Shown one piece after another: positions 3,148 to 63,838 of a DNA stretch of 64,000 bases; the stretch's first letter is position 1; every line of letters begins with the position of its first letter. The DNA comes from Phoronis australis. Its lineage: Eukaryota; Animalia; Phoronida. The DNA is taken from positions 1-64,000 of the forward strand of contig NMRA01000758.1 of NCBI GenBank assembly GCA_002633005.1, written 5' to 3'. The translations under genes and the position numbers were made by a program. The notes beneath the pieces were generated by a model, which worked only from the letters and a program-made list of their open reading frames with translations, made no database searches and was not told where the DNA came from.

Positions 3148-3456
3148 CCATTTCCGAAGTATACTGCTTCAATTATGTCATAAACATTGACTGCAACAAT
3201 GCTCAACACATCACCATTGTCAGTCTCAACTATGGTAAAGGTAACTGTACCTCAGTGTGTTGCGCACATGACTTTGACTGTGTCCGCCCAGTACAGGATG
3301 TTGAGCTATCCCAGTACAATGCTATCATGGATACATGCCACGGCAAGGGGTCATGCTTTTATAAACTACCACTTGAAGTACCCAGCCTAGACATCGCCTG
3401 CCCACCTTCGTCATCATTCAAGCCTTACCTCCGTTTAACATACAGCTGTACTACAG
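3148..3456 (+). CDS. Gene A exon: SUEL/Gal_Lectin-like domain (10 Cys)
   Basis: tttcag acceptor, gtaagt donor, phase 1-1, open: ISEVYCFNYVINIDCNNAQHITIVSLNYGKGNCTSVCCAHDFDCVRP...CHGKGSCFYKLP...ACPPSSSFKPYLRLTYSCTT; C..L.C..YG..C.GK.SC..YL..Y.C pattern of SUEL domains. Confidence 0.85.
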
Positions 3457-4516
3457 GTAAGTGCCACAACAATTCCAAATGTCGCTCACACACAGGCGTA
3501 CCCTAGCACAAGTTACTGCCACAAGGAGTTGTCGCAAAGTTTGGATGCTGTGTGGACGTTATTTAAACTAGTGTAACTAACTCCACCTTATCGAAGTAGG
3601 GTGACTTGTTCCAGAGTAACTTGTGCCACTTATGAGCGCTGTGTGGCCACCGACCTGGGGCAAGGTGTAAGTTAACTATCAGCTGCGTATTCGCATCGGC
3701 TGTCCATAATCATGAACAGTGCGACAACTTCCACCTTACCCTAGTTATGTGTGTGTGGATGTTTTACTTAAAAGTGGGGTAAGTTGTTTTGGCCTTAACC
3801 CATGCTTATTTCTTATAAGCAGAAACTACTGATACTAAGTCTTTTGACACAATGTTTTCCAAATGATAACGAGTGACAATATACTTAACTGTTTACTATG
3901 AAGGGTCGAGACTAAAAAATAAACTATAAAACACAATACTATACTACTGAAGAATAATAACTATATACGTTCTTGAACTGTCCACATCCAGTCTAAATGA
4001 CAATTCTTGTACTGTATTTATATCGGACAAAGCTTGATCATATAACCACTGTTATGGATTAGGAATTTACACTCCCAACAGTTGTGTGACAATGTGACTG
4101 GCATCCCTACAAAAAATGGAGGGTAGTGAACTTCGCGAAATGCCATGGTTTTTTTTAGGGTCTTCCACATAAGTCACCATATTAATGCAACTTGTAACTT
4201 GATAACTTATACTGAAGCTTGTCAAAAAAGACTACCCATAAAAATTACTTTTTACTTGCGGCAACAAGAACATACTTGACTTGTCTGATGTTGACAATCA
4301 TTGTTGCTTAGTGGAGTAGTCAACTTTCTCCATAATAGTTTACTACTTAACCAAAGTGGAGTGTTCATTTGTGTATTATTATGTATACCTTAACAGTTGA
4401 GTTGAGCAAGGAATACTTGTTGCAAAGATGTAATGTTCCTTTGATTTCACTGCAGTGATATTATACTTTCACTTATGAAAAATTAACAAACAAAAAATAA
4501 ATCAAACTTGTTTCAG

Positions 4517-4684
4517 CCACCACCACTACCACCACCAAACCAACAACTGTGCCACCGACAACACAAAGGCAGAAGACATCACAGCCTGCCATCCTTCCAC
4601 GGACAACAGCGCCACCACCAGGCAGCACAACAGATACAGCTTCTGATGGTGGCAAAAACCAGACTCAAACTGGACTCGGCACAG
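4517..4684 (+). CDS. Gene A exon: Thr/Pro-rich mucin-like stalk
   Basis: tttcag/gtatgg, phase 1-1; ATTTTTTKPTTVPPTTQRQKTSQPAILPRTTAPPPGSTT...GLGT. Confidence 0.85.
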
Positions 4685-5107
4685 GTATGGAGCAGCCATA
4701 GTAGCCATGTGAACTCGGGCTCCAGTGTGGTTTAACAATCAATCATACTATCATTTGATTGGAAACTCTATATTTAAGTTGTTGGAACAAATTTTCTCAC
4801 AGGGAAAAGGAAGTGTTTGGGTATGGAACTTGTGTACTCCTTAACCTACTAACAGTTCAACTGCTTTTGTGCCCTCTTTCACAGTGACTCTGTGAAAGGA
4901 TGATGACCAACGCAGGAATGAGATGGAAAAATAGTGAACCGTTTTGATATTGTGTTTTGACGCCTTGTTATCTTGTGTGTCACATAAGACCGACTGGAAT
5001 GCATCGATTTCAAATAAGTCTTGTTGATGCAGCAGTGGCAAACCATGATAGATTCAGCAGAATGCACTTCTCAACACCAACCAGGTGGAATATTTGAATA
5101 TTACTTT

Positions 5108-5336
5108 CAGGGCTTGGAATTCTCCTTTTTTAAGAGAATTTCCTTTTATCTGATTTCCAATTTCCTCTTTTTCCTCTCTTTTTATCATTATTTTGACTTT
5201 ATTCATGCAAAAACATTTATTTCAATTATAGTTTATAACACAAAACATATTTCTATCACAAAAGCCTATTTACTTTTGGAATGATACGTCACCTGAAAAT
5301 TTTCCTCTTTTTTGTCATTGGTCATACCAAGCCCTG
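5108..5336. mobile_element. Small non-autonomous DNA transposon, 6-bp TSD (hAT-related?)
   Basis: TIR CAGGGCTTGG...CCAAGCCCTG, flanked by TACTTT on both sides; related copy at 15145-15623. Confidence 0.65.
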
Positions 5337-5460
5337 TACTTTACAAGCAACCCAATATCAGAATGTACGGATGTTTCTTTGTTATCACAAACATTTGAAG
5401 TATGGTCTGCTCGCCACCTCCTGGCCACAGGTGGGGGGGGCAGAAATCTTTTTGGACTTA

Positions 5461-6850
5461 CCGTATTCGCCGTAATAACCGCCCATGCCCCTATAAGCGC
5501 CCCCCCACGCGTTTTCAGACTTTGCTGAAATAAGCGCCCAGTCCATGAACGTGTACATGCGAACAATGACGTACCTACATTCCTAAAACTCGGCCACAGT
5601 AACGTTTTCAAAAATTTTTTGCACGGGTCTTCTAGACCACCAGGGGCACTGCTACATTTGTATCTAGCCGTGACTTTACACTTCAAAGTAACGCAGCGCT
5701 TTAAAAAGAACGCAACAGCGTTGCTACGCTCTTGCGACGACCGTGTCCCACTATGGTCTGACCTTTCAGGAGACACATCGACTGTATCATGAATAAAAAT
5801 AATTCTGTGTTAAACGCACGTGGCCAGGAAGCGCGCGCTACATATATGAACCTGTCATCAAAGACATTAGTCGGGAACTATCCATTCATGAAACGGGTAG
5901 CATAGCATCGATAAGAAATAAATATTGGCACTAATTTCCGACAATTTCTAATACTATAAAACATTTTTGTGTTATTTTTGAGACGGATTGTTTGATTAAC
6001 CATAATTGGTGTTTTAAAGCATAATATCCGATAAAATGACAACTGACTGTGAATGCTTACACACCCTTACACCGAAAAGTAACTGTCAGATAGTTATGTA
6101 CGCATCCAGCAACACGGCGACTAATATGGCCTTACCGAGACAAATGTCGAAAGTTTTTAGCACGAGACCGGCAAGTGCTGAATGAAACACGCTCTGGTTT
6201 AGGCTTACTGTTTGTGCAAATGTCTTTAGACACATCTAGCTAGTTAGATTGCATGGCTCTGGCCAAAAGACGGCCTCTGCTTTGGCAAATGAACTCTGGT
6301 GACACGCACGCGCTCGCTTACTCGCAGACGAACTTCAAAACAAACGTCACGTGACAACAACATGTGTGTTCGTCCAGACATTTTTCTCACCGTGTTGCCA
6401 ATCATACATGTAGATGGCACGATGTTGTAGATTTGTACTTAAACCTGCCGTTAATCCAGACTGCACAGGAACTTAAAAAATCTTAGAGACGCTACTTATA
6501 AAAGTTAATGAGGATTTCAAGTAATTTGCTTGAGTCGAAACCATTTTTATTCAAGCATTGAAGTCGCCATATCAAAGACGGCGATTTCGAGGCAGTCAGC
6601 CCTGGGATTTCAGCACAATTTTCTGTAAAATGATTGTAATTTAGCAGCAAAGTTTGATAGCAATGCACCACAGTTTTGTTTACAGTCTTTCATAGATTAC
6701 ATATACGTCACAGAGTATAAATTTGATGAATCTTAGCTTCCGATTACACCCGTTTCGGAGACCGGGTTTCAACCGCCTTGGGTTATAATAAGCGCCCCCC
6801 CTGAACCGAACTTTTCTAAGCGCCCTGGGCAGTTATTACGCCGAATACGG
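5461..6850. mobile_element. Non-autonomous Tc1/mariner-pogo-like element (copy 1)
   Basis: TA flanks; TIR CCGTATTCG(C/G)CGTAATAAC(C/T)GCCCA; subterminal TAAGCGCCC motifs; homologous copy at 60004-61894; no transposase ORF. Confidence 0.85.
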
Positions 6851-7221
6851 TATGTACATTAGGTCACATGATTTGGCCAACATGTGGCGTGCAGAACGGG
6901 CTTAAAATGTTTGTGATCTATGTTTCCATGCCAGTTCACAAGATTTACATATACGTATATAGTTACTTTGTTCTGTTAATTATAAGAAGCCAGGGTATGT
7001 AAGCATTTCATGCTGCTGCTTCTCATAACTTTGAGGAATAATGTAATTGCTTTTTAGTCTGGTGCACAAATGTCACAACCTCCACCACTAAACTCATTGC
7101 ATTCATACCTAGTGTTGTATATCGCTAGTTAGTGCTCTTCTAATACCGTATTAGCCCTAATAAGCGCCCAGGGCACAATGCTTGTGATATCTCCTATTAC
7201 CAGGATTTTTGTTCTTTACAG

Positions 7222-7303
7222 GTGCTCTGATAGGCATTATAGTGGGCAGCGTGTGCGCTGTCATTCTCATCGTGGTGCTTGTCATCATCTTGTTGAAGCG
7301 CAG
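7222..7303 (+). CDS. Gene A exon: transmembrane helix
   Basis: tttacag/gttagt, phase 1-2; GALIGIIVGSVCAVILIVVLVIILLKRR with basic stop-transfer. Confidence 0.9.
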
Positions 7304-8715
7304 GTTAGTGTTAGCAACATCAGTCAGAATGTTGATTAGGACTAGACTTTTATCCATCCATCAAGCATGCAGATATCACAAATGGCTGTCACTGTACTGT
7401 TGCCATGTGTGGTCTAAATGTTGTTGGGAGGTAACTGTCTACATTTTGGAAATTTTTCATATTCCATAAAAACTTAACTGTCCATATGTTTTCTGAAAGC
7501 TCTGATTGAAAAATGTTAGTTTACGCCTCAATTGTCTATAACTACGTGACTCCCATTTTTGTGAAAATTGTCATTTTTGTTTTGAACACAAGTTTCTAAA
7601 AAACTGAACTGCCTGTGACTTACTATACCTCAACGATAGAGATGTTAGCCAAACTTCGTCTCAAGTCTTTATTTTTGACAGCTTACATCTCAGTTTGTAG
7701 TGGATGAGGAAGTCAAACATCTGAGATATGGTTCCCTCAGCCATAGACCTCGAAATAAGGGTAAAAAATTCCATGCTAATCAGCCCACGCATTAACACCA
7801 AATCAATGTTCAAAACTATCATAAGCATCAAAAACCAAAAGGTCTGAAAATAGCTCATAATGACGTGCCACAAAATTGAAATTAATGATCAACCCAAACA
7901 ACTTGTTTATTTGGCGCACAAATAATGTGTTTAGTAAGTGTTATGATCAGGAATGAAAAATATACATATAAATATATTTCAGTGTTAACTAGCTAAAGTA
8001 GACAACATTTCCAGTTACAAAGTAACCTTCAATATCACTTCTTATCAGGCAAATCTACAACCTGTGTTTAACAATATATTCTGAGGCAACTAAATGACCT
8101 TTAAATGACCTCAAGGTCGGATCCCTGATGAGAACAAACAAAATTCTGAATATAGAAACTTTTTAAACTAAATTTGATGTGCTTCACTGTCACGTACATC
8201 ATTGAATTCTGCTTGACAGGACTTTTCTGGATTGATCCATTTGCAATGTGACTGAAATTTGTGTCACAAAATGCAAATGTTAAATTCTATTTAATAGGAT
8301 AAGTAATCCTTTTTGATGTTACTTTTAATATAAAATACAGATCCCTGGTTATCTTGGAGAGCTCGTTTTTGGATTCTGTGGCATGCATTTACTACACCTG
8401 GTACAGTGGAAAGCAACGTAAACATCCCAACAAAGGCCTGCATCTTGGTTTGTCATTCACTTCTGTTGAAAAAAACATGAGTGTCCAGTACATATTTTGT
8501 TCAATAGCCAGTCGGACATTGTGTTTGTTCAATGGCAGTGAAAACAGAACCAAGATATAAGCCTTTTGCTGGACAGTTTGTGTCACTTTCTATCATTTCT
8601 TGGGTAGTAACAGCAATTAAGCAGAAAGGTGTATCTCCAAGATAATCATGGAATTGCATTTTACTAATATTTAAAATGGTTGCATTTTCCTTCAAGTAAA
8701 TATTTTTCACAACAG

Positions 8716-9547
8716 GAGGCAGAGTAAGCCGGAGCAGGCTCAGTTCCCTCCATCCCACTCCGGCCCAGTCACATCAGTGCCAATACAATCAGGTCCTGAC
8801 GAGCTGTATGGCTTCCTGCCTGGGGCAACGGTGGAACCAGACGCCAAGAGAATCAGTCGCATTAAAGAGAGTCAAGCTAATGGTGATAGCAGGACACCTT
8901 ACAAGGACAATTCCGGTGTTGTCATGAAAAACGAAACTAAGGGTGGAAAAAAAAAGTCTAGTAGTTCTAATGGGAAATCCGTCACCAAAAGCAGCGCAAG
9001 CGGAGATAGCAAAAGTCGTCCAAAGTCAACTGGTCTCTCGCGTGAGGAGTCGTTGAACCGCAAGGTTCCCAATGTTCTAGCACCCGGTGAGAGGAGACCA
9101 GCGAGGCCGAAAGAAGTCACTGTGAATCCTCAATATGACTATCCACGGAGCTCGAAGAACATTCAGCCAAGTGAGCCACCAGTTGCTAGTTCAAAAGACA
9201 GTGCAAAAACTAAAGATTTAGACAAGAAAGCTGAGAAAGTTGAGCCTATAAAAGCAAACAAATCTGAAGAGAGTAAACAGAAGGAGAAAGATTTAGACAA
9301 GAAAGCTGAGAAAGTTGGGCCTATAAAAGCAAAAAAATCTGAAGAGAGTAAACAGAAGGAGAATTTGGGTAAATTAGAGCTCAAGGAAACTAAAGACACA
9401 ACCGGTGCTAAATCTCAACCTATTAACCATGAGACAAGTAAAAATGAAGAGCAACCTGCAAGTCAAAAAACAGGGGAGACCATCCAAGGAATACACAATC
9501 CCGCTTTCGATACAGAAGATCACAACCAAGACAGTGATGAATCGTAA
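8716..9547 (+). CDS. Gene A terminal exon: cytoplasmic tail (DELYGF, NPQY, NPAF; Lys/Glu-rich)
   Basis: aacag acceptor in phase 2 joins in frame to ORF 8777-9547; low-complexity hydrophilic tail. Confidence 0.85.
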
Positions 9548-12291
9548 GGCCAAGTAAAAAATAGACAATGGAGATTTAAAAATTCACTAGATGGCGCTAG
9601 TGTAACAATAATCCTTCCTGTAGATATGCATGCATTCAGGTAATCACAGAGGACATTTAACCCATGAACATCCTTATACCAATGAACTGCTTTCTGCTCT
9701 CAATTTATTTTAGTTTCAAAGAGTTTAATCTCCTTTCTTTATCAGCATACTAAGTGTGCATTTGAGTTGTCTATTGTTAGCACAAGATGACAACATTACC
9801 CTTGTCAACTTTTTAGAGTTAGTTTCATGTTTCTGGAATATTATTGTATGTTGTGGTCAACATTCCCCAACAAACCAAAGACTAGAATCGGGTGAATATC
9901 TCAATGACTTATTGTTATGGTATGACTTAATTTCTCTTTCACGTGGGAACACCATTTCCCACTACCAATTTAAGTTTAAGGAAACTTAGAAAATAGGATG
10001 CAGTTAATAAAATGCTATGGATTATTATGACAACATCAGGGTAACATACAGACTCTTAAAAAAGTACGGCATACATTCGGCAGGTGTTTGCCAGGTAGAG
10101 TATTCAAGAATTCAGGAAAAAACAAACAATCAGTATAGGGTTTTTGGTTAAAGTACAAACCCTCGTGTGACATTTCCAACACGGATGCGCAATAAGAATC
10201 ATTTAGAATTTTAGTCAAGTAATGATTGGCATTAGGTAGTCTAGTGGCCACTGTCAAATCGTAATTTGACAGGTTAGCGAACAGGAGAAATGTCTCTAAC
10301 AACAGGAAAAAATCGAAAAACTTAATTCTCGTGCAGGATTTGGTATAACTGTTGTCCTTTTTGTCTGATGTTGTTAAATTGTAGTTATCTCCCACAATTA
10401 ACTATGTCACAAACGTATCAGTACCCAATTTGCAAATGTGTTTGGCAGTGAATGGATAGGTCAGCGAAAGGTGCGTTGCAGTGACTTAAATGTGGGATGA
10501 ACGTCCGATTTTAAAATCCTCAAGGAAATTTTGCCAACAAAGTGGTGCCTAAATTATTGAAATGGTTGCACACATGTGCCAGGTCTTGAACTGTTCATCA
10601 GCAAGTTTCAGTACCTCAAACTGAAGACGATGATCTGTATTAATTGTCACCACGCAGGTAAGTTCACTTTGGGAGTCACTGTGTATGATCCAATTCCCCA
10701 CACGGTACTATCATGTTTTGCTAGTCAGGCCATGTGATCTAGCTAGCTTTAACCAGAATATACTATAGCCCCTAGTTAACATGCCTTGCAAACCAGACCA
10801 CATGATCTGACTAGTCTTCTTTAGCATAAAGACTATCCTCAGGTTTACATGTCTTGAAAGTTCTAATAGTCAATTGAGAACACTTATGTTAACACATTTA
10901 GTGTCTGGCCACTGAGCAAAGCACAATAACTAATAGATTTAGGACCAGTTGTAGAGTAGTATAACTAAGGATTTTCATTGGCAAAGTTCAGACTCTTGCT
11001 ATCAACAAGTTTAGTTTACAAGGCTATTTTTGTAAGGTTTATTCCATAACTGAGTCACCCGGCCAGAGGAAAGAACATATCATTAATGATGTTTTTAACT
11101 ATATATTAATAAAGCACAAAAATATTTCCAGGTGATCAGTGCATTGGGCCCACATGCGCGGCCTGCGCACGTCTGGTACAATGTATACCAGACCATACAA
11201 CGTGTACCAGACCGCCTGCAATTATTTTTTTATGTTTTGTGATATTATGGACATGACTGAGTCATAGTCTGAAACATATAGGTATTGAGGAGCAGAAATA
11301 TGTAATGACATTTTAAAAAAATGCAATTCTATTACTCTCGTTATTTCATTTTCTAGGTTTTTCTCGTGTCATTGTGAAGAAGTCGTATAAAAATGGGATT
11401 TCCAAACTTTATATTCGGTACTAATTGTCACACGCATTTCAAGCATGTAGATTTAAGAAGACAATTGTGAACACGTGTAATGAATTCTGCTCATCAATGA
11501 AACAACTTAAAAACAAAACGTGGTTCCAAAAACTTTTATAGTATGGAGAACAAAACATATCAGCAAACTGTTTTTGTTTATAAGTATCGTTTAACTTTTG
11601 TAAATTGAGTAAACAACGTCCATGTATTTATAGATTTTTGCTTTATTAAATAAAGTATTATGATTTTGTTTTTCTAAATGTCTTGTTATAACATTGTCAT
11701 TTCCTTCAGTCCACTATGTTACCTACCACAGTTACAACCAAAAGTAGACAGTGTCTAAGCACACTCTAAATACTTAAACAAGCAGTAGCATACCATCCCT
11801 AATAGCACACAGATCACAGACATGTCATGTCACAGTCTGTGTTTACACACAGTTCTTTCAACATAACACTGAATGTACCAACTTAAAAGGATGCGGAACA
11901 ATCCTTGTTCCCAGTTGAGTAAAATCTTTGGTTTTGGGTGCAGATTTTGACCAGTAATGGGCGTGTTTATGTAAATACATGCAATTACTAGCACTGATTT
12001 ACATAGATCAAAGGTGCATTTCATCCCGTTGAGATGGCTAAAAAATGAAAATTGACTTCAACTTTCTATACTCTTACAAAGTTGGTTATGTAATGTTCCT
12101 AAGAGTTGCAAATTGGCACATGTAGGGTAGGTACTGTGACATGCCTGCTCGTTCAGCAACAATTCAAGATCGGATGATCGAGGTAATGTTATAAACTTCA
12201 TAGAGCTTCCAGTTAAAAAAAAGCGGTGTAATGCTACCTTAATTAGTCGCACAGCACTTCAAGTTCTCATGACAAAGACCAATCTGAATTA

Positions 12292-15071
12292 CCGTAAACG
12301 TTCGGGTTAACGCCCATGCTCAGTTAACCACCCACCCCCTACTTTAGGTGGATTTTCGATTTAACCGCCCACTGCTCGGTTAACCGCCCATCTGCGATTT
12401 TTGAAGATTTCTAGTTAAGCGCCCACCTCTCGGTTAAGCGCCCATCCCCGACTTTTAAAGATTGAAGATTTTAGCGCCCAGTGCTACGCAAACGCGCGAT
12501 TCCCCGACTTTTAGATCGATGATCACAACTAGAGTGCAACGACGGCCTCCGAGCCGGCGGTTTGGCAACGTGAATTTTAATACAAGTAACGAATTCTTGT
12601 CTCGGGTCATGGATTTACTTCAAAATATAATACTTGAACGTTTTGTCACTTTATTTTCTTCTCATGTTCAAAAAGTTTAAGAACATCGCCGGCGTCAATA
12701 CCTCCGCTTTTAGCGACGCGGTCTGCGGCGCTGAGTTTCTGTCTGCAGTGCACTACATAAAACATGTATTCGAAAAAAATCGGGCCAGAGAAATGTGACA
12801 GTGGTTTTGCCAACCCTTCCAATTCGCTTTTGGTAGGAAGCTCTCGTATCTGGAAGAATTTCCATAACTCACGGAAACATTCAAATTGTCCCGATTTTGA
12901 TGAGTGTAATTGCCAGGTTATCGAGGATGTGTAGCGACCGAACGGACAGTGTACCTCGCTGGCCGATTTGCTGTCTCTCGATATCTGAATTCAAAGGTTA
13001 GCAATACGTTACTGGATGTTTGTGTATCATCTTGAAGAAATAAAAAAGTGCAAGTCAAATTTATTTTGTTTTTCGTTTATTGCATCTCGGGCAAGTTGAT
13101 TCCCCCAAAGTCGCGGGCGGCTCTCTGTAGTACGATTTCTTGCGACAGGCGTAACTATGAATTATCGTATCCACCTAGCGTTTTAGCTTCCCGAATATTT
13201 TTGTTTCTACATTGGGCAGTTTCAGCCTGAACAAAATTCTTACCATTCGAGTCTGAGACATCTACGACGTAACTGATTGGAAATTGGCTTCAGTGACAAT
13301 GACGTGCACGCAGCTAGCTACGGGCATGGAACATCGGGTCCAGGGATCATCGAGCCGGGAAATATTGGAACAGATATGACATTCATGTGTAGTTTTGGGT
13401 TATTTGAACGGAGGAAAATTGTAAAACACTGTTTTTTTGTAACAACAGCTTAAAAGTAGAGAGTCGCGCCGGTGTACTCCTTTACGTAGGGCTATCACTG
13501 TTCTCTTTTGATGTGCAGGCGTGTGAGTTCCCACACTCTGGAGTGCATATTACCTTGACAACAACATATATGATTGACAGGTGACTCATACGTACGCGCG
13601 TGCTGAATCCAGCCGCTGTCTTTTGTCACATAAAACAAGACTCATATTGAAAGAGGCTGTTAAATTACTTGACGGCATTTCCAAGTCCAGTGACGGCATA
13701 TTGTGCGCAAACAGCGGGACCGACCAGTGCCGCAGTGCGATATTGCCGTAGGTGATATTATAATGGGATAATCTGTACATATTGCGTGTAAAATAAATGT
13801 TTTTCGAGTTGCTTTATGTTTGCTAGGTAGGCCTATCTATTTTACCCCCCCCCAAAAAAAAACGGCTCGCGTAGGTTGGAATTTCCCGGTGGCAGGTACA
13901 AAACGTTTATAATCTTGGCTCGCATTTCCAAATTTCAGGTCTCCAAAGCGACCTGCAGTTCGTTATGCCGAGCGCGGAGTCTCGGTTGCAAAACACTGAC
14001 TCGGAAAGGACGCGTTGCTGGTTGAAGCTCTTCACTAATTTAGTCGTATAGCCCCGCAAACCACGGATGCCGGTTACCCGAAGAATTGGGGCTACATCTA
14101 CGAATTGTTTTTTACCGACGTCTATACGTGTACGAACTGGTAATTTTTTCCTCGGACTCTACTGTACGCGCTCACTAGACTCATCCCCAGTCATAGTGTT
14201 AGTAATTTTAAAATAAAATCTTAAGCAAATGCTTGTTTTTGAGTAATGCCTTTGCGGTAACTTTTGGTTGGCGACTGGCTCATGTCCGCTTACCCCCGAT
14301 TCTCATCTTTTTTGCGTGGCATGTTTCACGCAATTGGAAGTGGGCAACGCCGGGCGGTCGAGATAAAACAGCTAGCCGCAGAACCATGCGTTGAAAATGA
14401 GTCACGGAGTGTAATCTAATCTAATCTAATCTCCAACATAAACATCAAAAACACAAAAACACCTGAATTTGTTTTTCAAAATTTTATTACATCATTAATT
14501 TTAAAATTGGTCTTTGACTCGGAACTTGACAGCACCATAAATTTGATGTCTGCTGTGACCTCTGCAACACGTGAAGCTCGCGCCCGCACGCGCGCATTTC
14601 TAAAGTGTCATCGTGTGAGAATAGTTGCAATCCAAGTTATTGTTACTGGTCGTCTGCGCACTACAGCTCTAATACGATCACAATAAGGCACAGGGCTATT
14701 ACTCACCAATTTTGTAAATTTAATTGTGATTGACTAATCTGTGGGCAGCAAAACATTTCTTGGGATCGCCCGCTGTTATGACACTTTTAGCGGTATTTGG
14801 CGACTTGACAATAAAGTTCTTTGAAAAGTTCTACGCGTTCCGAGTACGTGTGTCGTGTGGTAATCTGATCATGAGGTAAGATTAACCGCCCAGGGCGGTT
14901 GTCTGTCGTAATAAGCGCTCATGCTCAGTTTACCGCCCACCCTGGATTTCTTGAAATTTTACGTTTAAGCGCCCATGTCTGGTTAACCGCCCATGTCTGG
15001 TTAACCGCCCACCCCCGATTTTTTGGGTTTGCCAATTTAACCGCCCAGGGCGTTAACCCGAACGTTTACGG
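12292..15071. mobile_element. Non-autonomous pogo/Tc1-like DNA transposon, 2.8 kb
   Basis: TA flanks; perfect TIR CCGTAAACGTTCGGGTTAACGCCC; multiple subterminal TTAA(C/G)CGCCCA motifs at both ends; no long ORF. Confidence 0.9.
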
Positions 15072-15144
15072 TAATACATTGTAACAAACATCTTTGCAGG
15101 TATGTAACTTGTTCTAAATATATGCACCACATTAGGGTTATGTT

Positions 15145-15623: not shown

Positions 15624-15645
15624 CATGTTACAAATAAAAGGATGA

Positions 15646-18401: not shown

Positions 18402-18410
18402 GGAGCATCT

Positions 18411-50644: not shown

Positions 50645-50750
50645 TTCTGCACACAACAGTGAACTCTCACCATCTGCTGTTGATAATGTGTTTAGTGGCA
50701 GGCTTGGTACTGGTCATTATGATCTACGTACTTGTCTGTGTTGTATCAAA
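50645..50750 (+). CDS. Gene C transmembrane exon
   Basis: ttttctag/gtgagt, phase 1-2; VLHTTVNSHHLLLIMCLVAGLVLVIMIYVLVCVVSK. Confidence 0.85.
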
Positions 50751-52253: not shown

Positions 52254-53222
52254 GCAAAGGAGGTTGTGGTGTATAATGGCTTGGGAAAATTTGGCTAAGG
52301 TTAAATGTAACCAATTCAAATTTTTTTTGAAGACACAGGCTGTGCATGCCACAAAAAAATGAGAGGATTTCAAATAAATATAATTTCAAAGACATGGTAG
52401 CAGTTTACAAAAGAAAAGCAGTGCCATCACTAACACATATGATTATTCACCTACAACCTGTCAATCAAATCTCTGGCCACCAATGTTTTCGCACAATGAA
52501 AAGTCCTGTTGTTTGTCTGACACATACTGCTTTAAATGAAACAGCTGTCGTTTCAAAGTTTCGAAAGATTTTATTCATTTTCAAGTACTTAAGTCAGACT
52601 GTGAAGGAAAAATATGTCAGAGTGCAAGATAAAGATTGCGTGACCTCAATATGGCACTCCCCAGGCATTCGGCAATTTCCGTAATGGAATCTGTCTATAA
52701 GCCAACATGAGTTCACATAACTTTGATGGCAATCCTACCTAGGTTTTGAAGTTTAATCACACAACTCTCCCTAAATATTTCTGTGCATGGTCATTTTATG
52801 CAACTGATTCTGTGATCAACAGCATATGGCCTGTGACTCAGTCGTGAGTCACCTGCTGGATTATTGTACTTTACCTACACTGGTCGGCTCTGGACAAGGT
52901 GTTTCAAGTTTCAGTTTTAAAAAAACGAGTTCTACTATGACAAATTAAGCGTTATTTTGAAAAATTTACTAAAGAGGGAAACACCACAGCAACTACGACT
53001 GAAAAACGTAGTTGGGAGCATAAATTGAGAACAAAACAGTGAGGGTTCGACGGCGTTACAAAATTGCTTTTTTCAGCGAATCACATGTTATTTACCCACA
53101 GTGCCATAAACATCCGTCAGGCACATTTGCTGCCTGATTCTCGTGCCACTGGAGTTGGTGTGTTATTTGTTGTCTGATTCTTAACAAGTTATTTTCGTTT
53201 CATTACTCTATTTGTCCATCCA

Positions 53223-53430
53223 ATGCCAACGAAGTATTACTACTGTGCTGTGGTCTGCAATTGCGACATGAGAAAGTTTGATAAACTGCACAAACACCCG
53301 TGGATGCGGGATGTGAAATTCTTTGCTTTCCTGACATCAATGAGAGACACAGAAATGTGCCCGACTTCCAAAACAAGGTCACGCGATTTCATAACTCAGC
53401 GACAAAGGAGAGTTCTACCGCTGTGTAACT
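53223..53430 (+). pseudogene. Degenerate THAP zinc-finger remnant (transposon-derived)
   Basis: MPTKYYYCAVVCNC...KFFAF...RDF...RV resembles a THAP N-terminus; conserved W and final C/H lost. Confidence 0.4.
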
Positions 53431-56380
53431 TGAGAGGGCCCTATTTTCATTATGATGCTTTGGGCAGTTAGGCAGGTAGAATTTAGGCGGACATCAAAAA
53501 TATACTAAATTTTTTAATTGCCCCCAGGTACCGCAGCATACGTCAAATCCGTCCGAAAACGGGAAGGCGTCATCGTCTCTTAAATAGAAACCTATTTGCT
53601 AAATTTCACGATTTCACACAAATCCATCAAGGAACTCCAGAGATACAGAGGCAATCATAAAATAAAAAAACTAAAATTGTCACTAGGGGACAGAGCTGCA
53701 GTGGAATTGGTTCGCAATTCATGATTGTCTGTTGTCAGCTTCATAGAAATATATCAGTCAAATCTCATTAGGATCCTGCAAGGGGTTTATGAGATTCAGC
53801 CGCGGATGCCACAGGCCCGCACAACTGGACCCCCAGACAGAGATGACGACAATATGCACCCACATATAAATATAATATAATTATCAGTTATGCTGAATAA
53901 ATACATTAATGTAAACACCCATCGACTCTAAATAGCTGTCAACAAATAAAATCTATCGCAGCATTTTGATCAATTGTTATTCTATTTCTTCTGCCAATAG
54001 GATTCTCCACTAACTTTTTACGAGGAATTCAATTTGAGAAGCCAGACAAGTTAAAATTACCAGCTTCTGTCCTTGACATTTCAATTCATTGCAGCCAGTT
54101 TTAATTGCTGTGAAGGCATTGATAATACCATAGCTGCCTTGTACAACAGACTAGGAGATCAACTGTCATGACATCCATGCGGACAGCAACACTGATTTTC
54201 CCCATCCTGGTTGATATAGAAAAACAAGATACCACTGAATGGCCAGTTTCTTAATGGCCAATAGCAGACGAATCTGTTTGAAAATCATTGCCAGCCATAC
54301 ACTTAATTCCCAGTAGAAACAAACATGCCAATTTTCATAACAAACCTTTAAGTGCTTAAGACGATACAGAGGCAGGCGTCAAACTTTAAAACATGGACAC
54401 TAGGTAGCACACAATATACCAAATCCATCCAAAACCATGAAATGGGCGTTGCCCCCTTAATAGACCCATTTGCAAATTTCTTGACAATCCTTCAAGGAAC
54501 TCAAAGTAAAATACAACTAAAATGATATTATCTCTCGTGTCGCTTTTTATTGCCCATCTTTCCAGAGATTATTATTTTATCTTTATGTTATTTGTACACT
54601 CATATTTCTGTACCTTATCAGTCATAATAAATGACCTTATATCGCCTATACACGGTCTCCTTTGTATCTCTGGAAACGGAGCTTGCGACGCACCTATTAT
54701 TTTCGGGACATATTCCGAGCATAAATTGTCACTTGGATGCATACAAAGTGAACAAAGAATGGAAAAATAACCATAGCTTTTTTATAAATTTCATACAACA
54801 ACAATAATAGAAACTAAATGTATCACAGCACAGTTAAGTTGTTGGGCATGACTGCAAACATAAATTCTACAATTAAAAACATCATTACACGCATCTGTAG
54901 TTACATGATACTATTCGTGATATTATGCTCTTTGTAAACTGCAGAATCACTTCATTTGGTGGGTTGCAAAAAACAGCTTCTGCGTCGAAAAGCTGCTCAG
55001 AGAAAATTACTTAGAGAAACAGGAAAAAATTAATATCACCTCAGATTCAAAACTGGACTCATTTAAGGTTGCAAACTTTTTCTCAATACCTCCAATTACT
55101 CGTAACAGAGAACACATTAATGTTCACGAAACCAAACTGCGGCACATTTGAAGCCAAACTTTGACATGAGAAGGTGTCACCATGTCCACTTGCCCACAAC
55201 TTGATGGCAGCTGGAAACTTTTGGCTCTCTTTTCTATGGATAATTTCGTTGTGTTTTGTAAGTAAGCCACAATAGACATACAAGTTGATAGGGGTGTTTA
55301 CAACAGATTAAGCCAGTACCAGATTAGGGTGTCAGTAGCTCTCCTGTGGAGCTAGTCAAATGTGTTACTTTCATATTAGGTAAGCACCAAGAGATTAGCA
55401 TTGTTTACAGCCAAATAATGATCAGCACTAAACACTTCAAGCTCTGTCACTGCAAAACCTGTTGACAGTGGCCTGCTGACCCAGAAGCGTGCAGGTCAAA
55501 CACAATACCCCAATGCCACAGCCACACAGATGTCCTGGAGAGTCTTCATTTGAGACTGGCCCATATACAGCAGAGCAGTGTCCAGTAGAGTAACAGCCAG
55601 AGGTCTACATGACAATTCAGATGTCTGGAGATCAGTGACAGTCCTGTAATATTGTGTTTTAACCACAAAGTGGAGACAGGTAAGAAACACAAACCAACGT
55701 CTATCTCATACAGGTCAATTGTTTTTAACAAAATTGTCAAATTTTGCTGCCATTCTTACAGAGCCAGACTGTAACACATAAATGTATGCTCTTGGCATGT
55801 GGTAATAATTCTTCTCCTGCTGAAATGGAATTCTTACAAATAAAACTTGTGGTCATATGCACCCAGCAGCCTTTTATTTAGTTTCCCTAGCTGCAATGCA
55901 GACTGCTTGGAACAGGTTAGCTCTGGTGAAAATCCAGTGACTACGGAAATTATAATCTTGGTTATTGGCAGTGGCACGGTTTGTAACAGCAGTTGATATG
56001 ACAGGAGTAAAAATACTGAAATGTGTACTGCTTGCACAATTTGATAAAGAGTCAAAAGATACACCAGGATTAAAGCACATGCCTATTCCGAACAAAGGTA
56101 TAAGGTGACACCAGACATAATTGAAACCATCTGTGCCACAGAGACCTTCTATTAGCGGGAGAGACAGACATTATCAGTGATCAGCACTCATTAGATCAAG
56201 ATTTTTTCTAAATGGTCATGCTCAATAATTATAGGCACAAGATAAGAATGTGTGTCTATTTTGCAACAGTTATCAATCGCATCAGTTTGTGTTAAATGAA
56301 GCTACTAACACAAACCATCTTATTCAAGAAAGTGATTTGCATTTCATTGTTGAAGGCAGTTTGAGCATTCCGAGCCTTAG

Positions 56381-56590
56381 GATACACAAGGTGCACAAAG
56401 GTCTCCCACCTGACGTTGTTTAACGGGAGTGTGTACATGACTGTACTCCACGTCACTGATGAGTTGCTAAGATATGACCATGTCTGTAGGACGATGATGT
56501 ATCCAAAAAACTCAACTCAACTGACGATAGGGCCATATGGGATGAACAGTGGGACAACACCACCAGCTGGATCACATGGCAGACACACAG
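56381..56590 (+). CDS. Gene D candidate ectodomain/stalk exon (5' boundary uncertain: 56270 or 56381)
   Basis: Open phase-1 frame YTRCTKVSHLTLFNGSVYMTV...CRTMMYPKNSTQ...GTTPPAGSHGRHT ending at G|gtaaat; upstream extension to 56270 contains two stops. Confidence 0.4.
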
Positions 56591-59383
56591 GTAAATAATA
56601 GGTAATCTATGCAGGTTAGGTAATGAGCAATTTTATAATAGAAAGTTAGGATGCCTTGCAGTTATCACATGCATCTAACTGGTATGGACAAGTCAGCAGC
56701 AACAAAAATGAAGTTAATCAAAGTAAAATAAAGGTGTAAGGCTTGTTAAAAGATATAAAACTGCGTTGAATTCAAGTCTAAGGCTCATGTCAACCAATGG
56801 AACAAGGATCAACAGCAACTGTAAATTCTCACCAATTTCGGACAAAACTAATTGCCAAAATTGCTCTTCTTCATTTTTTCAACACAATTGTCGTGATCAG
56901 CCACATTTTTCACAATGAATGTTGGTAACTACAGTGCACAACTTGAACATGGTAGAACATTATTTTAGTGTTTTATTTTTTAGGAAAAAACAACAAAGTA
57001 AAATTTCTATTGTTCGCAATATTGTGAGATTTTACCTACATTGTTACAGGTTTAAACAATTAGACAGTAACAATTTGAAACAAATTGTTAAAACTAATGT
57101 ATTTGCATTCAGAAGTTATCACATCAAATTTTTTGTATGGATTCCTAACAACCATTTATATGAATCCATATGAATGGAGACATAGATGCTGAATAGTTAG
57201 ATGTAATATTTCATGCAAGGTGTATCATCAATCATGACAATTTATACCATTTCTTATGACTGAGCAATGATAAAGATCAAGATGTTTTTCAGGAAAGGTA
57301 ATATGAATAGTGATGAGACCAAATAATAGATCACCTGATATGACTTAACATACAACAAAATGGAGTGTATATGAAATAATCCCAATAAAAAGAGAATGGT
57401 ACAGTTTCAGTCTACTGGTTCTCTGCATCAGTGTTAAATATAACTGTATAATAATACCCATACTCAAGTATCAGCCAATCAAAGCAGCTGCATTAGAATT
57501 GAGTGAACACTTACGAGTTTGGTTGTTCCAATCCCAGGAATAGGTAGGCATTTATTTGAGTGGTTTTGATGTCCTTGTTGGTATGGTAAGTAGAAAAGGA
57601 AGGAATATTATGAGACTGAGTTCATGAGAGGAAATGGCTTGATTCGATTTTCATTTTTAACCAGGTAAACAGAGCAGCTTTAAAAAATGTGGTTAACATA
57701 CTGATTGCAAAAGTATTGTTTTTCTTATTGGTCCTTGGCAAATTCAGCCTCATGAAGTTTGTTCATGGACTTAGTCCACACTATAAATTTGCTTTGTTAC
57801 TAATATTCTGTCAGTTTGGTTGTTGGTTTTCAGACCCCAAAATATGACTGAGGTGGGACTTAGTCATTATATCATTTTTTGAGTCACGACAATACCAACA
57901 TGTTCAAGTTAGGTTCAAAGTGTATGATTATAGTTTACTTCACACTAAGCTGAACATAACTGGGCTCAATAAATTATTTTGTCTTCATTTTCTTTTTCAA
58001 CTTGGCTAACTTAACCTTACCTCATCTCGTTCACCATTAATGGAAGTGAATTCTGGGATATTCCAGGATGTTCCCTTGAATATTTTAATAACAAAAATCT
58101 TAAATGTGTTCGGTATATTCTTACTGGTCTTTTGAGTTTTATCACAAGTGCTTTATTGTTGTGACAACAAACTTATTCCAAAGGTGAGGGACTAACGAGA
58201 GCATGAGAATGCCAGGATGTGAAAAACCACCGTTACTGAAAACATTACACGAGAAATTAAGTACGTAGCGTTTCAGCAGTTAATCAGCACTAGTCAGCGA
58301 GTCTGACTGTTGGCTAGTGTTGTGATGTTTTAAAATCAGATTTATGAACTAAAACTATTGTAATAAGATACTGTGCGTCAGCCCTCTAGGTTCCCAGGCT
58401 AACTCTCAGCTGTTATGCCTTGAGGTGTTAACTGTTTCGTTTTGTTGACGTCATTATACCACTTTATGCTGATTGGTCAAGAAAATGTTGAACGCACGAT
58501 AGGGACATGGATTTGAGGAGGCGTATGAAATACCTTGTCATTAATTAGTGACAAAGTAAAATGAAATACAAAAATAATTTGTTGTTCAAATATATATGTG
58601 TTAAAAATGCATTTTGTCTATTCTGCATTGGGTTGTCTCCGTTTTTGCCAGATATGGATCATTGTAAAAACTCTGGTTGGAATTCCACAGTCAAAAATAA
58701 AAGACTAATGAGAGAGTTGGTCAAAATCTGTGGCCACATTTCCAAAGTTCCATGTTGTAAATGCAAGCGTGAGCTTGTTATGTTGAGCACTCCTTGGGTC
58801 AGTCATCGACCAGTTTTTAGCCAAAACATTGCAGAGACTGCTCGGAATGGGCAAAAGAACTATGGGTTATACTTTCCGAAAGATTTCATGTTTTGTGGTC
58901 ATACACTGGTGCTTGTTAGTGCAAAATAATTGACAAACGTCATTTGGTTATATCAACGTTATCACACGCTGCACATGTCATCGCTCGGCAACCTTGCCGT
59001 TGGTGCAGTAGTAGTGGTGACTTCCAAACAAGAAGTTCCAGGGATCAAATCATACATTACTTCATTAAGTTTTTAAAAGACATTTAGCGGTGGTCAGTAT
59101 AAAGGTATGAGCAGTCAACATGGAGAACTACTGTTTCTGAAATATGAATTAGAAATCACGTTATATAACAAAAGATCCTGAAACAGATAAATAAGACAAC
59201 ATGAAATAGACCACTTATTGCAACTGTTCAGATTTGATTAGTTTAGATTTGATTAATGGCTACAGGTTTGTACAAGCAACATCTACCAAAAAGAAACTTG
59301 CAATTTGATATGTAATTGTTAATTGATATTTCAATAAACAGGTATATAATGCAAATCTTACCAATGAATACATTCTCTTGTAG

Positions 59384-59471
59384 GAGACAATGGCCTGCTC
59401 ACAGGCCTAGTGTTTGGAGGCATCATTGTTGCAAGTATTCTAATCCGGCTGGCCATTTATATGGCAGAAAG
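59384..59471 (+). CDS. Gene D transmembrane exon
   Basis: ctcttgtag/gtaagt, phase 1-2 like the other paralogs; GDNGLLTGLVFGGIIVASILIRLAIYMAER. Confidence 0.7.
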
Positions 59472-60003
59472 GTAAGTAAAACTGTATCCACTGATGTACC
59501 AGTGATGTATTGTAATGCAGTTGATATGCAGTGATATGGCAACAACGTGCTACAATACAGTCTATATCCACTGATATAACAATGATTTCCAATTCAATTT
59601 ATATCCACTGATATACCAACAGTGTGCTACACTACAGATTAAGGTAATTTTTCAGTTTATTTACACAAAATAAATGAGGAAACAACTGTTCATAATTTTT
59701 TCTAAGGCTGAATGCTATGTTACGAATAATGAAAATTATATAAAATAAATATATATTTAGATCTATAAAATTATTAACTTGGACCATCCTGTTTGACAAA
59801 ATTATGAGAGTTGAATGTATTACATATAATTTTGTGACAGTTGCAAAAAATCAATTATGAAATAAGGCAAGCTGACACTTCAATTTCTATGGTAAAACTG
59901 CAGTTATTTTTGGCTTATATAAACCGCGTCGTTCATATTTTCAATATCTTATTTTGAATCTAACCATTTTTGACTCATCAATACAGTGATCAATATGACT
60001 TTA

Positions 60004-61894
60004 CCGTTTTCGCCCTAATAACCACCCATGCCCCTATAAGCGCCCCCCCACCCACGCGTTTTCAGACTTCGCTAATATAAGCACCCAGTCCATTGAACGC
60101 CGTGCACATGCAAAAAAGGCCTTACCTACAGTTCTAAAATTCTACAGTAACATCTTCAATTTATCAATAATATCCGACAGTCATGAAAGAATCATTGTGC
60201 GCAGAATTTGTAGTCCAAGAGCCTGGCCGCTGTGTCAGTACTTGGATGTGATTATACACTTCAAGCTTTGCTGATCTTGCGAGGAATGTGTCCCACTATA
60301 TGGCCTGGCCCGTCAGAACAGATACAGCATACTTGTCAACGGGATTGTATTGTAGGTATTTCCCGCCCTCAAAAGGAATCCAAAAATTTTTTCGTACATG
60401 TGAAAACCGCAAATCGAAAACTAATAAAAAACTTGGCCAGTGTTAAAAGCACGTGGCCAGGAAGCGCACGCTACATACATGAACCTGTCATCAAAGACAT
60501 TAGTCGGGAACTATATATTCATGGAACGGGTAGCATAGCATCGGCAAGAAATGAATATTGGCACTAATTTCCGGCAGTTTCTAATACTATAAAAATGTTT
60601 GCGTTATTTTAGGAGGGATTGTTTGATTAATCATAATTAGTGTTTTTAAGCCAAATATCCGATAAAATGACCACTGACAGTGAATGCTTACACACCCTTA
60701 CACCGAAAAATAACTGTCAGATAGTCACGTATGCATCCAGCTACACGGCAACTAATATGGCCTTACTGAGACAAATGTCGAACGTTTTTAGCACATGAGA
60801 CTGGCAAGTGCTGAATGAAACATGTTCTGCTTTAGGCCTACTGCTTGTGTTAATTTCTTTAGGTACAATGCACATCTAGCTCGTTGGATAAGGATTGTGT
60901 TTAATCTGGCAAATGAACTCTGGTGACACGCAGGCCTTTATCCAGGATTTCGAAAATAGGGTGTTCAAAATGGGGTTCCCAATATTCCATGGCGTGCATA
61001 ATTTCGACGCGTAACCCCCAACCCTAGCAATCCTCCCAAACACACAGATTTTTTTACAAAAAATGCATAGACCAAGCATTTTTACATCTAAGATTACAAA
61101 ACAGCCTTCTGTAGAGAGCATTTTTACTAAAAAAACTGTAGACCAAGACCAAGTGTGAGCACAGCAAATTGTATATACTTTGTATATATATTCTATATTA
61201 ATTCCTGCTTTGAAAAAAACCCACTTAAAAGGTTCTTGTTGACAGTGGGTGTCTAAATGATACATTGGGTGTCCTTGCCAGGGCGTCTAGATTAGTGCTA
61301 GGGCGTCCATTTGGACGCCCAGGACGGACGCTGCATAAAGGCCTGGTGACACGCACTCGCTCGCTTACTCACACACACAGACGAACTTTACAATAAAAGC
61401 CACGTGACAACAACAATGTTTGTTCAGACATTGTTCTCGTGTTGCCGATCACAGATGGCAAGATGTAGCAGATTTGTACTTAACCTGCAGTTAATCCCGA
61501 CTCCACAGAAACTTAAAAATCTTAGGGACGCTATTTGGAAAAGTTGAGAAGGATTTCAGGTGATTTGCCTGAGTCGAAACTGTATTTTTATTCAAGCATT
61601 CAAGTCGCCATATCAACGATTGCGATGCAGTCAGTTGGCGAGTTTTTGCCCTGAGCACAATTTTCTGTAACATGATCTTAATTTAACAGCAAAGTTTGAT
61701 AGCAATGCACCACAATGTTGAAGAAAGTCTGTCATTGGTTACAGACACGTCACAGAGCGTAAGTATGATGAATCTTGGCTTCCGATTTTCACCCATTTCG
61801 GAGACCTTGTTTCAACCGCCCTGGGTTACAATAAGCACTCCCCCCCTGAAACAAATTTTTCTAAGTGCCCAGGGCTGTTGTTAGAGAAATACGG
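60004..61894. mobile_element. Pogo/Tc1-like non-autonomous element (copy 2 of 5461-6850)
   Basis: TA flanks, diverged TIRs, long internal colinear similarity with copy 1. Confidence 0.85.
60931..61345. mobile_element. hAT-type MITE nested in copy 2
   Basis: TIR CAGGCCTTTAT...ATAAAGGCCTG; 8-bp TSD GTGACACG; empty site present in copy 1 (~6299-6306). Confidence 0.9.
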
Positions 61895-63162
61895 TAAGTG
61901 TTGTTTCAAGACAACTATGCAGTATCGACTATTTTATTGTAGACCCTTGACAAATTCAGGCTCAATTTTCCGATTACTTATCCCCTTTGCAACAGTGGAC
62001 ATGCCTGAACATCTTCACCTAGTTTGGATTGCAATATCAGTAGTCATATGTGTGATCCCTTGTTGTAGACCTTAGAGGCTGTTGACGCAAAAGGCAAAAT
62101 TAACAGGATTAGCCAGCAGATGATGAAAGTTTCAAATACTTGATTCTCCTGTCTTGCGGAACGACGTCAATCAATTTCTCATTAGTAAAATTGCCAAATT
62201 ACTTCACTCAGCTCACCTCTAAACCAGAGTATATTGTAGCTGTTATTCATATCAGCAATACCACAATATACTTGTGTTGACGTTTCATATGAGAGACTAC
62301 TTGTGCGATTATTTGTATGGCTATGTGTGTATACGTATACATATTAAGTGTGTATAACTATGGCATGATTGTATTGTATTGTTTCTATAACAACTCATCT
62401 AGGCAATGTTAATAACGAATTGCCCAGATAAAATGTTAATTTTGATTTATGGGATGTAATGTTATCTAATCTATTTACTTAATACTCATGAATAAAAAAG
62501 TAGAGGAACTTGAGAAACTCAAATCGCAGCTTAGCCTGTGCTAAATAATGTGAGACTTTCAAATAGCAACTTGGCAACAGGTCACCTGGGACCGGATACC
62601 GATGGCCTCTAGAGGATGAGGAGGTACTTTAGAACGCATCACGTCTAAGCATATACATTGTGAATGGGCCTTTTCACAAAGTCGCAGTGGTCCCCTATGC
62701 CACCCGCTGCAAACACATGGTAACTCCTGGTACAACTAGGTGGCGCTATGAGTCACCGGTCCTACGTGATCAGCCCCAATTGCTTTCTGAAAGTCTCCCA
62801 TTGCTGCAGTTAGATAAAGGTTATCACTTTCCAGGGCCCCAAGACCATCAACAACCATTCTTTACTCGAGACTATACTAAAAATTGACTAATCGTATAGC
62901 ATGCTTGAAATGAAGTTTCATATTTCACAGTATGCGATTGGCCAACTTTGTAGTCGAGTCTTCAGAAAAGATGGATGGTCTTGGGCCCATATCACAGTTG
63001 TCCAGGATGGAATATTTACTAAAGCTCCATTCTGGGTAGGCTCTACAAAAAAGAAATGATTCTTTATTCAAACACAGGAAAACTGGTTTACCGTAAATAA
63101 CATGACCAACAACACTCTACGCCTCATTCATCCTGTGACAAAATGTTACATTTTAATTACAG

Positions 63163-63838
63163 GCTGTACAAAAAATACAAGCTGTATGAACCCATCAAAG
63201 CTGACAATGACAAAATGGCATGTAAAACCAGTGATGTGGGATACATTAACCCACTTATGGTCGCTGAATGTGAAGATGTCACCAACAACAGGATTACTAT
63301 AGTCCCAACTGAAGAAACAAATATAACAGAAATCAATGTCAGTGAAAACAATATATCAGCTCTGGACTATGTAAGTTGTAGCCACGACCACCAGAGGGCA
63401 GCACACATTCAGGAGATCAAATCAACACATGAGGAAGAAGAGTGCTTCCAACCTGTTGGCTTCACAACGGGAGGTGTCAAACTTACACACTCCAAGACAT
63501 CCAGTGGCAAGAATAGCCATGACTGCGGCCAAACTGTGCAAGTAAACACTGAGTGCTGTGAAAACTCAGATTTATCAAAATTCACCCATTCTGAATGTAC
63601 CGCGAGTATTCCACAGGACCAAAGTGAGCACGATTGCAAGATCAGTAACAAAGGGACATTTAATCACTTGGTTCACAGGTACTCAAAGAACATTGAGGTC
63701 CCGCTTTGTATTATAACTGATGGTTTCCATGGTGACATATTAGGTCACAAGACTCCTGCAGATAGAGTAGGAAGACACTCCAAGTGGCCACCTTATGCCT
63801 TCGATGGTGTTACAGTCAGTTGTAAAGCTGAAATATGA
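63163..63838 (+). CDS. Gene D terminal exon: cytoplasmic tail (Cys/His-rich; LYEPI, GYINPL, LDYV)
   Basis: ttacag acceptor in phase 2 joins the TM exon in frame to ORF 63143-63838; RLYKKYK basic juxtamembrane segment. Confidence 0.75.

Follow-up and report, generated by a model that had tools for sequence, protein, structure and literature searches.

The first 64,000 nucleotides of contig NMRA01000758.1 of Phoronis australis (positions 1–64,000, forward strand; hereafter the window) contain a cluster of genes for putative membrane receptors. Each receptor carries one SUEL domain, the domain of the rhamnose-binding lectins (RBL), on a stalk that is followed by one transmembrane segment and a C-terminal tail. 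Three genes, designated A, B and C, lie head to tail on the + strand, which is the orientation of all genes in the cluster. The clustered genes are real: A and C are expressed and spliced, and B is a predicted third gene. We propose, with a probability of roughly 0.5, that the three genes may constitute a family of rapidly evolving receptors for the recognition of non-self on a new scaffold, with an organization like that of the Alr genes of Hydractinia and the PTC genes of Biomphalaria. By the features tested, their predicted products are members of the RBL fold superfamily and are neither rhamnose lectins nor EVA-1, latrophilins or receptors with immunoreceptor tyrosine-based inhibitory or activation motifs (ITIM, ITAM).

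The window has the character of animal DNA with introns and repeats, and the GC content is 36–45% in most 2-kb bins. Both strands were scanned for open exons of at least 240 nt with phase 1 at both ends and at least five cysteine codons. Three such exons are present, at 3148–3456, 32631–32951 and 48598–48918, and they encode the SUEL-like domains of genes A, B and C, respectively. The intron phases are common to the three genes: introns that flank the SUEL and stalk exons are of phase 1, and the intron after the transmembrane exon is of phase 2. The RNA data comprised three raw-read runs (X2, X3 and X4) and one contig set (X1) with the same species label as the window, and they were mapped to two stretches, 200–10400 and 44600–64000.

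The structure of gene C is established by RNA over its entire length. The gene consists of six exons: the coding part of the signal-peptide exon (47922–47982), the SUEL-like exon with eight cysteines (48598–48918), stalk exon 1 (49688–49786), stalk exon 2 (50071–50148), the transmembrane exon of phase 1-2 (50645–50750) and the tail exon, which encodes 165 amino acids with five tyrosines (51755–52253). The 3′ part of stalk exon 2 duplicates stalk exon 1 with 75% identity. The five GT-AG junctions are covered by 9–92 reads each per run in the three raw-read runs and are also present in the X1 contigs. The spliced open frame of 387 amino acids contains the signal, the SUEL domain, the two stalk exons, the transmembrane segment and the tail. 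A tandem repeat of 26–28 nt starts at the donor of the transmembrane exon (50744–51019) and repeats the donor sequence about eight times; only the first donor is used among the junctions listed.

Gene A comprises a SUEL-like exon with ten cysteines and phase 1-1 (3148–3456; scan, Pfam and RNA), a Thr/Pro stalk exon (4517–4684), a transmembrane exon of phase 1-2 (7222–7303) and a tail exon encoding 276 amino acids (8716–9547), the latter two also seen in RNA. The three junctions within the window, including those of the stalk exon, are found in all four RNA runs with 1–11 reads. The RNA joins the stalk exon at 4520, one 3-nt repeat unit shorter than predicted, and leaves the frame unchanged. 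The 3′ untranslated region (UTR) extends beyond 10400. At the 5′ end, the RNA contig reaches 162 nt further on sequence that is not found in 200–10400, and a 17-nt piece of this sequence is absent from the whole window. The signal exon of gene A therefore lies upstream of the window.

Gene B (27227–46320) is represented by an intact model of 509 amino acids with canonical splice sites. The signal exon (27227–27299) and the Ser/Thr/Pro stalk exon (34141–34407) are predicted by the sequence model, and the SUEL-like exon with eight cysteines and phase 1-1 (32631–32951) was found by the scan and by Pfam. The transmembrane exon (44897–45005) has low sense-strand RNA coverage, and the tail exon, which encodes 252 amino acids with nine tyrosines (45561–46320), is transcribed, with reads on the sense strand. 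The 10.5-kb intron between the stalk and transmembrane exons is an unproven prediction of the model. Alternative transmembrane exons at 36395, 40930 and 41113 were rejected as hydrophobic stretches without splice context. The latter two lie in a 165-nt tandem repeat (40894–41187) whose + strand reads as long hydrophobic runs and mimics a transmembrane exon. The first intron of gene B holds long nested direct repeats with units of about 450 nt and 70–87% identity (28006–32077), as well as tandem arrays of 55–73 nt. A sequence-only reading of this DNA had described three head-to-tail genes with a common plan, from signal to tail, and the same intron phases. The exons, their order and the phases are upheld, in B as an intact model, and RNA junctions bear out the splicing of A and C; the signal exon assigned to A within the window was not borne out.

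The Pfam model PF02140 of the SUEL domain matches all three domains over its full length with 19.9 (A), 19.9 (B) and 25.3 bits (C) and E values of 1e-3, 1e-3 and 2e-5, respectively. All three lie below the gathering score of 31.4, and similar families would therefore be missed by standard lectin censuses. The domains are only 20–21% identical to each other; the eight cysteines, the YG motif and the terminal Y..Y.C are common to all. A profile built from the three domains matched 12 PDB sequences, all of them RBL or latrophilin lectin domains, with SUL-I as the best match (E 1.9e-10). An AlphaFold model of domain C with a 19-row alignment reached a mean confidence (pLDDT) of 88.8; a single-sequence fold with a pLDDT of 40.6 was discarded. 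The ten best structure matches of the model are all RBL or latrophilin domains (Z 8.0–8.8, root-mean-square deviation 3.1–4.0 over 85–90 residues), and those at the top come from complexes of the latrophilin lectin domain with TOL-1 or teneurin. In the protein atlas, domain C falls with SUEL-bearing clusters annotated as "hypothetical protein" (0.95–0.96). Domain C is modelled as an RBL fold and domains A and B are assigned to it by sequence, in agreement with the SUEL domains claimed initially.

The residues required for sugar binding are largely missing. In the RBL domain of mouse latrophilin-1, Glu42, which follows the first cysteine, and Lys120 are needed for binding of rhamnose and galactose, and even the exchange of the glutamate for Asp or Gln abolishes or sharply reduces binding (PMC2430599). 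The glutamate after the first cysteine is present in none of the three window domains, compared with 221 of 363 other database domains aligned at that cysteine. The loop-2 lysine is found in one window domain, that of gene B, compared with 244 of 294 other database domains. The tyrosine of the YG motif, which lines the pocket, is retained in all three domains, and the PDPCPG loop is not. No binding of rhamnose or galactose is predicted for domains A, B and C. They resemble a Glu-less type that occurs in exon-like fragments of ENA/Logan contigs and in Lingula proteins; both the glutamate and the lysine are absent in all 16 single-domain fragments and in all 10 Lingula domains.

When 1.84 billion proteins were searched with a profile, 252 matched. 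The best 150 of them are single-domain fragments, secreted lectins with tandem domains, and EVA-1-like proteins with two domains. None of these 150 combines one SUEL domain with a transmembrane segment and a tail of repeated tyrosine motifs. Two or three single-domain transmembrane proteins are found among the best 150, and they are EVA-1-like with a weak first domain. No one-to-one orthologue, which would have spoken against the sequence-only reading, was found, the best identities among these 150 matches being 28–32%. Word-seeded searches among longer proteins found no close relatives, which is weak evidence, and scans of metagenomes with domains A and C found none. In a quick tree of 87 of the 405 domains, A, B and C stand on long branches outside the group of EVA-1 and RBL (Shimodaira–Hasegawa-like approximate likelihood ratio test, SH-aLRT, 90, unstarred). 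A literature search, made mostly without subscription papers and supplements, found no description of clusters of single-RBL receptors with tyrosine tails; the sequence-only reading likewise had not recognized the architecture as a characterized family. Supplementary gene tables could list such genes as uncharacterized. The membrane RBL proteins listed in the accessible text of PMC2430599 are only latrophilins, PKD1-like proteins and EVA-1/C21orf63. The accessible parts of PMC8878817, PMC5117596, PMC9334734 and PMC13712769 deal with secreted SUEL proteins, counts or other lectin domains only.

The tails had been described as tyrosine-rich. This is an overstatement: the tyrosine content is ordinary, with 1.4% in A, 3.6% in B and 3.0% in C, and the signal consists of repeated acidic tyrosine motifs in B and C. 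The tail of gene C contains the motifs IYSDL, LYASV, LYALP and PPKPPR. The tail of gene B contains LYAEV, EYADV and three DLYxQP motifs, and its C-terminal unit is duplicated. The tails of B and C have in common a C-terminal unit of 26 amino acids with 65% identity (E ~1e-5 within the window), which supports the common descent of these two genes. YxxP sites bind the SH2 domains of Crk, Nck and Abl. The motifs LYASV of C and LYAEV of B resemble YSSV, the Csk site of Cbp/PAG, a transmembrane protein with multiple tyrosine sites (PMC3492796). The likeness of the gene B tail to PAG is taken as a lead only. In the transmembrane and juxtamembrane part of gene C (50689–50775), cysteines stand at the inner end of the membrane segment and just after it, beside basic residues; by analogy with Cbp/PAG, they are possible candidate palmitoylation sites. 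The tail of gene A is rich in Lys, Ser and Glu, has four tyrosines and a 75-nt internal duplication, and carries the motifs NPQY and NPAF. Motifs of the type NPxY/F bind proteins with phosphotyrosine-binding domains. Since its tail is unrelated to those of B and C and contains these motifs, gene A probably signals or traffics differently.

Gene C is alternatively spliced at its recognition domain. The SUEL exon, or the SUEL exon together with stalk exon 1, is skipped in 15 of 55 (X2), 13 of 66 (X3) and 17 of 26 (X4) of the junction reads of exon 1. Both skipped forms are in frame and encode stalk–transmembrane–tail proteins of 280 and 247 amino acids, respectively. The SUEL-containing form is the majority in two of the three raw-read runs and the sole form in the X1 contigs.

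Variation was assessed by comparison of the window with the X1 contigs, one contig per gene, and with the four RNA runs in all. The SUEL exons differ at 14 of 310 nt in A and at 12 of 322 nt in C, and the stalk of A differs at 5 of 161 nt. Elsewhere, differences were counted at 7 of 568 nt in the first part of the A tail, 20 of 1066 nt in the end of the A tail and UTR, 7 of 1008 nt in the C tail and UTR (six of them listed in the UTR), none of 108 nt in the C transmembrane exon, and 7 of 675 nt in the B tail. When pooled, the SUEL exons (26/632) are significantly more variable than the transmembrane, tail and UTR sequences (41/3425; Fisher p=3e-6). Eight codons change the amino acid in each of domains A and C (13 of the 14 differences of A being listed), which corresponds to about 8% of the SUEL residues. 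The density of nonsynonymous changes is 3.7% in the SUEL exons, compared with 0.2% in the A tail, at most 0.3% in the C tail and 1.0% in the B tail (17 versus 7 changes, binomial p=6e-6). The synonymous density of 4.9% in the SUEL exons does not differ significantly from that of the tails (4.7% in A, at most 0.9% in C and 1.3% in B; p=0.07). None of the 16 changed codons falls on the eight core cysteines, YG or Y..Y.C, where about two would be expected by chance. X4 has several of the X1 variants of gene A and is mixed at others, and X2 and X3 are mostly as the window. This distribution fits alleles. The excess of variation in the SUEL exons is compatible with an ectodomain under diversifying or balancing selection, and equally with one whose constraint is relaxed.

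We propose that the receptors would bind a variable, probably non-sugar ligand through the RBL-fold domain, and that ligand binding would cluster the receptor. A Src-type kinase would phosphorylate the acidic tyrosine motifs in the tails of B and C, and the Y-A-x-V and YxxP sites of these tails may recruit SH2 proteins. The SUEL-less isoform of gene C, blind to the ligand, would tune the signal as a membrane adaptor similar to PAG, and pressure from pathogens or non-self would keep the ectodomain variable. A Siglec/KIR/Alr-like nature had been suggested for the cluster from the sequence alone. This reading is supported in part, with respect to the architecture, the fold, the phases and the transcription of A and C. 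None of the three results named beforehand as its refutation was obtained: splice junctions are present in RNA, the fold is that of SUEL, and the searches yielded no one-to-one orthologue among the matches listed. The excess of amino acid variation in the SUEL exons and the domain-skipping isoforms add support to the recognition-receptor reading. The suggestion that the receptors are highly diverged agrees with the low identity between the domains.

Several observations weigh against recognition of non-self. The tails of A, B and C contain no ITIM ((I/V/L/S)xYxx(L/V/I)) or ITAM by consensus (taken from PMC2194075 and PMC9546547). Gene A does not have a tyrosine tail, and its tail shows no homology to that of B or C, so that homology of the tails is confined to the latter two. 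The atlas score of the gene B tail against PAG, 0.80, is reached by a third of shuffled proteins. The quick tree is not resolved and does not unite A, B and C. No junction of gene B is among the 15 of 41 joints listed, with RNA mapped only from 44600 in this region. For the SUEL exons, the ratio of nonsynonymous to synonymous differences per site (pN/pS) amounts to about 0.75, a value below 1, and ratio tests of nonsynonymous against synonymous counts (N:S) are weak, with p=0.057 for A alone, 0.027 for A and C against the A tail, and 0.18 once the B tail (5N:2S) is added. Near-identical paralogues are the alternative to alleles as the source of the X1 differences. The predicted lack of rhamnose and galactose binding likewise counts against the Siglec/KIR/Alr comparison, and an immune role of the genes is putative.

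The best of the other explanations, although unlikely, is that the receptors serve cell-cell recognition of endogenous proteins, for instance when gametes bind or in adhesion or guidance, and owe their rapid evolution to selection of a sexual or lineage-specific kind and not to pathogens. The same absence of ITIM and ITAM counts in its favor, as do the complexes with TOL-1 or teneurin among the top fold matches. Fast-evolving ectodomains are also typical of reproductive proteins. RBL domains attached to receptors often lack the sugar residues and have been argued to bind non-carbohydrate ligands, and EVA-1 is a co-receptor of Slit (PMC2430599). However, the domains fall outside the group of EVA-1 and RBL in the quick tree, on long branches. 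The EVA-1-like matches are conserved and have two domains, whereas the window genes have no close relative in the libraries searched, and a receptor whose partner is fixed would presumably pay a price for variation within the species. It is less probable still that selection on the ectodomains is relaxed and that they are degenerate lectins, that only the transmembrane and tail adaptor is functional and that drift in an animal of high heterozygosity has produced the variation. The pN/pS of 0.75, a synonymous divergence of 4–5% throughout gene A, the loss of the sugar residues and the decayed appearance of a neighboring gene D would fit such a course, as would the skipping of the SUEL exon in gene C, which reaches 65% of the reads in X4. 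This explanation does not account well for the retention of the eight core cysteines, YG and Y..Y.C at about 20% identity, for the absence of changes at these positions (a weak point at about two expected), or for the SUEL-containing form of gene C being the majority in most raw-read runs and the only one in X1. That the proteins are still glycan receptors of a Siglec or Dectin type, with pockets rebuilt for other sugars, is very unlikely: the pocket tyrosine of YG in all three domains, the loop-2 lysine of B and the mapping of some variants to loop 2 would allow it, but the glutamate is absent in three of three domains, the lysine in two and the PDPCPG loop is lost, and such changes abolished or strongly reduced binding by mouse latrophilin-1 (PMC2430599).

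To judge from the Lingula proteins and from the 16 single-domain fragments, which come from unannotated assemblies, the Glu-less type seems to extend beyond the Phoronis genome. Tentatively, and with more doubt than is attached to the non-self recognition proposed for A, B and C, the cluster may represent a widespread, unannotated superfamily of invertebrate immunoreceptors on a sugar-blind RBL fold. In such a superfamily, clustered and allelically diversified ectodomains would read non-self proteins, Csk/SH2-type tyrosine motifs would replace ITIM and ITAM, and the recognition exon would be spliced out for tuning. If this is true, receptor complexes like KIR and Ly49 would have the RBL fold as a third scaffold in addition to Ig and C-type lectin. 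How invertebrates recognize with genotype specificity has been resolved in only a few cases, and these map to clusters of polymorphic single-pass genes. The present cluster provides candidates that are expressed and amenable to tests, built on a scaffold that has no described role of this kind, with a small, foldable variable domain and a natural isoform that lacks it.

Downstream of gene C, the features of a fourth gene, D, were found on the + strand. A possible decayed front end (55204–56590) consists of a signal-like exon (55204–55261) and, after it, exon-like pieces that bear cysteines and have stops in every frame; it has no Pfam match. Reading of 56365–56590 as half of an Ig domain was a guess without Pfam support and was rejected. 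A transmembrane-like exon of phase 1-2 with an arginine inside the hydrophobic run lies at 59384–59471. The tail exon (63163–63838), with low sense-strand RNA coverage, is open for 224 amino acids with seven tyrosines and 11 cysteines, and its product shows no similarity to tails A–C. Gene D is probably a decayed, unrelated receptor gene without SUEL. It had been said to keep the transmembrane and tail plan, which holds for the open transmembrane exon and the tail; a SUEL exon is missing, and the region upstream is full of stops. The pseudogene debris reported for the locus is limited to this probably decayed, non-SUEL gene: neither a fourth SUEL copy nor SUEL debris came up in the window when all six frames were searched with the profile and translation was continued across stops. 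The 17-kb gap between genes A and B has a raised GC content (41–45%) and a repeat- or transposon-like character at 11000–26000, where no receptor exon was found. A transposon-like element bounded by terminal inverted repeats is present in two copies of 80–85% identity (5458–6855 and 60001–61899), which sit in an intron of gene A and of gene D, respectively, with heavy read coverage from other copies.

The window domains share the eight-cysteine pattern, the YG motif, the coding of the domain by one exon and the fold with the SUEL/RBL lectins (PF02140; SUL-I 5h4s, CSL3 2zx0, latrophilin RBL 2jx9). They differ in scoring below the Pfam cut-off and in the loss of the glutamate after the first cysteine in three domains and of the loop-2 lysine in two. 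The RBL lectins are secreted tandem repeats or parts of seven-transmembrane receptors, whereas the window genes carry the domain once, on a stalk, and have one transmembrane segment. In the RNA of A and C, the only transmembrane exon is spliced to a tail exon that ends the gene, in contrast to the GAIN domain and seven transmembrane segments of latrophilins (ADGRL). EVA-1 of C. elegans and EVA1C (C21orf63) are likewise single-pass proteins with RBL domains that lack the sugar residues (PMC2430599). EVA-1 has two RBL domains in tandem and is conserved across animals, whereas the window genes form a tandem cluster with one SUEL exon per gene, the contig of A leaving only the 162 nt upstream. The window domains are at most about 30% identical to EVA-1-like matches and lie outside the EVA-1 group in the quick tree.

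In two uncharacterized proteins of Lingula anatina, XP_013401280.1 and XP_013419491.2, Glu-less RBL-like domains are arranged in pairs that alternate with a further module, and the former protein ends in a Thr-rich stalk and one transmembrane segment. XP_013401280.1 thus shares with the window genes the Glu-less and Lys-less domains, the stalk and the single pass. It differs in its size of 1489 amino acids, with six RBL-like domains and intervening modules, and in a tail without repeated acidic tyrosine motifs. In the short isoform of CD33, the ligand-binding exon is skipped and a membrane form with the tail is left, as in gene C (PMC9954446). The ectodomains of CD33 and Cbp/PAG are unrelated to those of the window genes, and the likeness to PAG consists of motif resemblance and a sub-threshold atlas score.

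In layout, the cluster is closest to two invertebrate recognition systems. The Alr genes of Hydractinia are also clustered single-pass genes with one domain per exon and divergent tails, and their polymorphic ectodomains, domain-changing isoforms and pseudogenes have likely counterparts in the window cluster (PMC9546547). They have Ig and Fn3 folds, and several have ITAM or ITIM, whereas the window genes have the RBL fold and neither motif; the relation is one of analogy and not of homology. The genes PTC1 and PTC2 of the GRC region of Biomphalaria are likewise clustered, mutually divergent and single-pass (PMC7494358). Their alleles have many nonsynonymous differences, yet synonymous divergence exceeds nonsynonymous divergence, as here. 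PTC2 proteins are reported to have no known domain and show an allelic divergence of up to 85%, with a mapped resistance phenotype, compared with about 8% of differing residues in the SUEL domains of the window. In snails, polymorphic single-pass clusters of this kind control resistance to parasites (PMC7494358).

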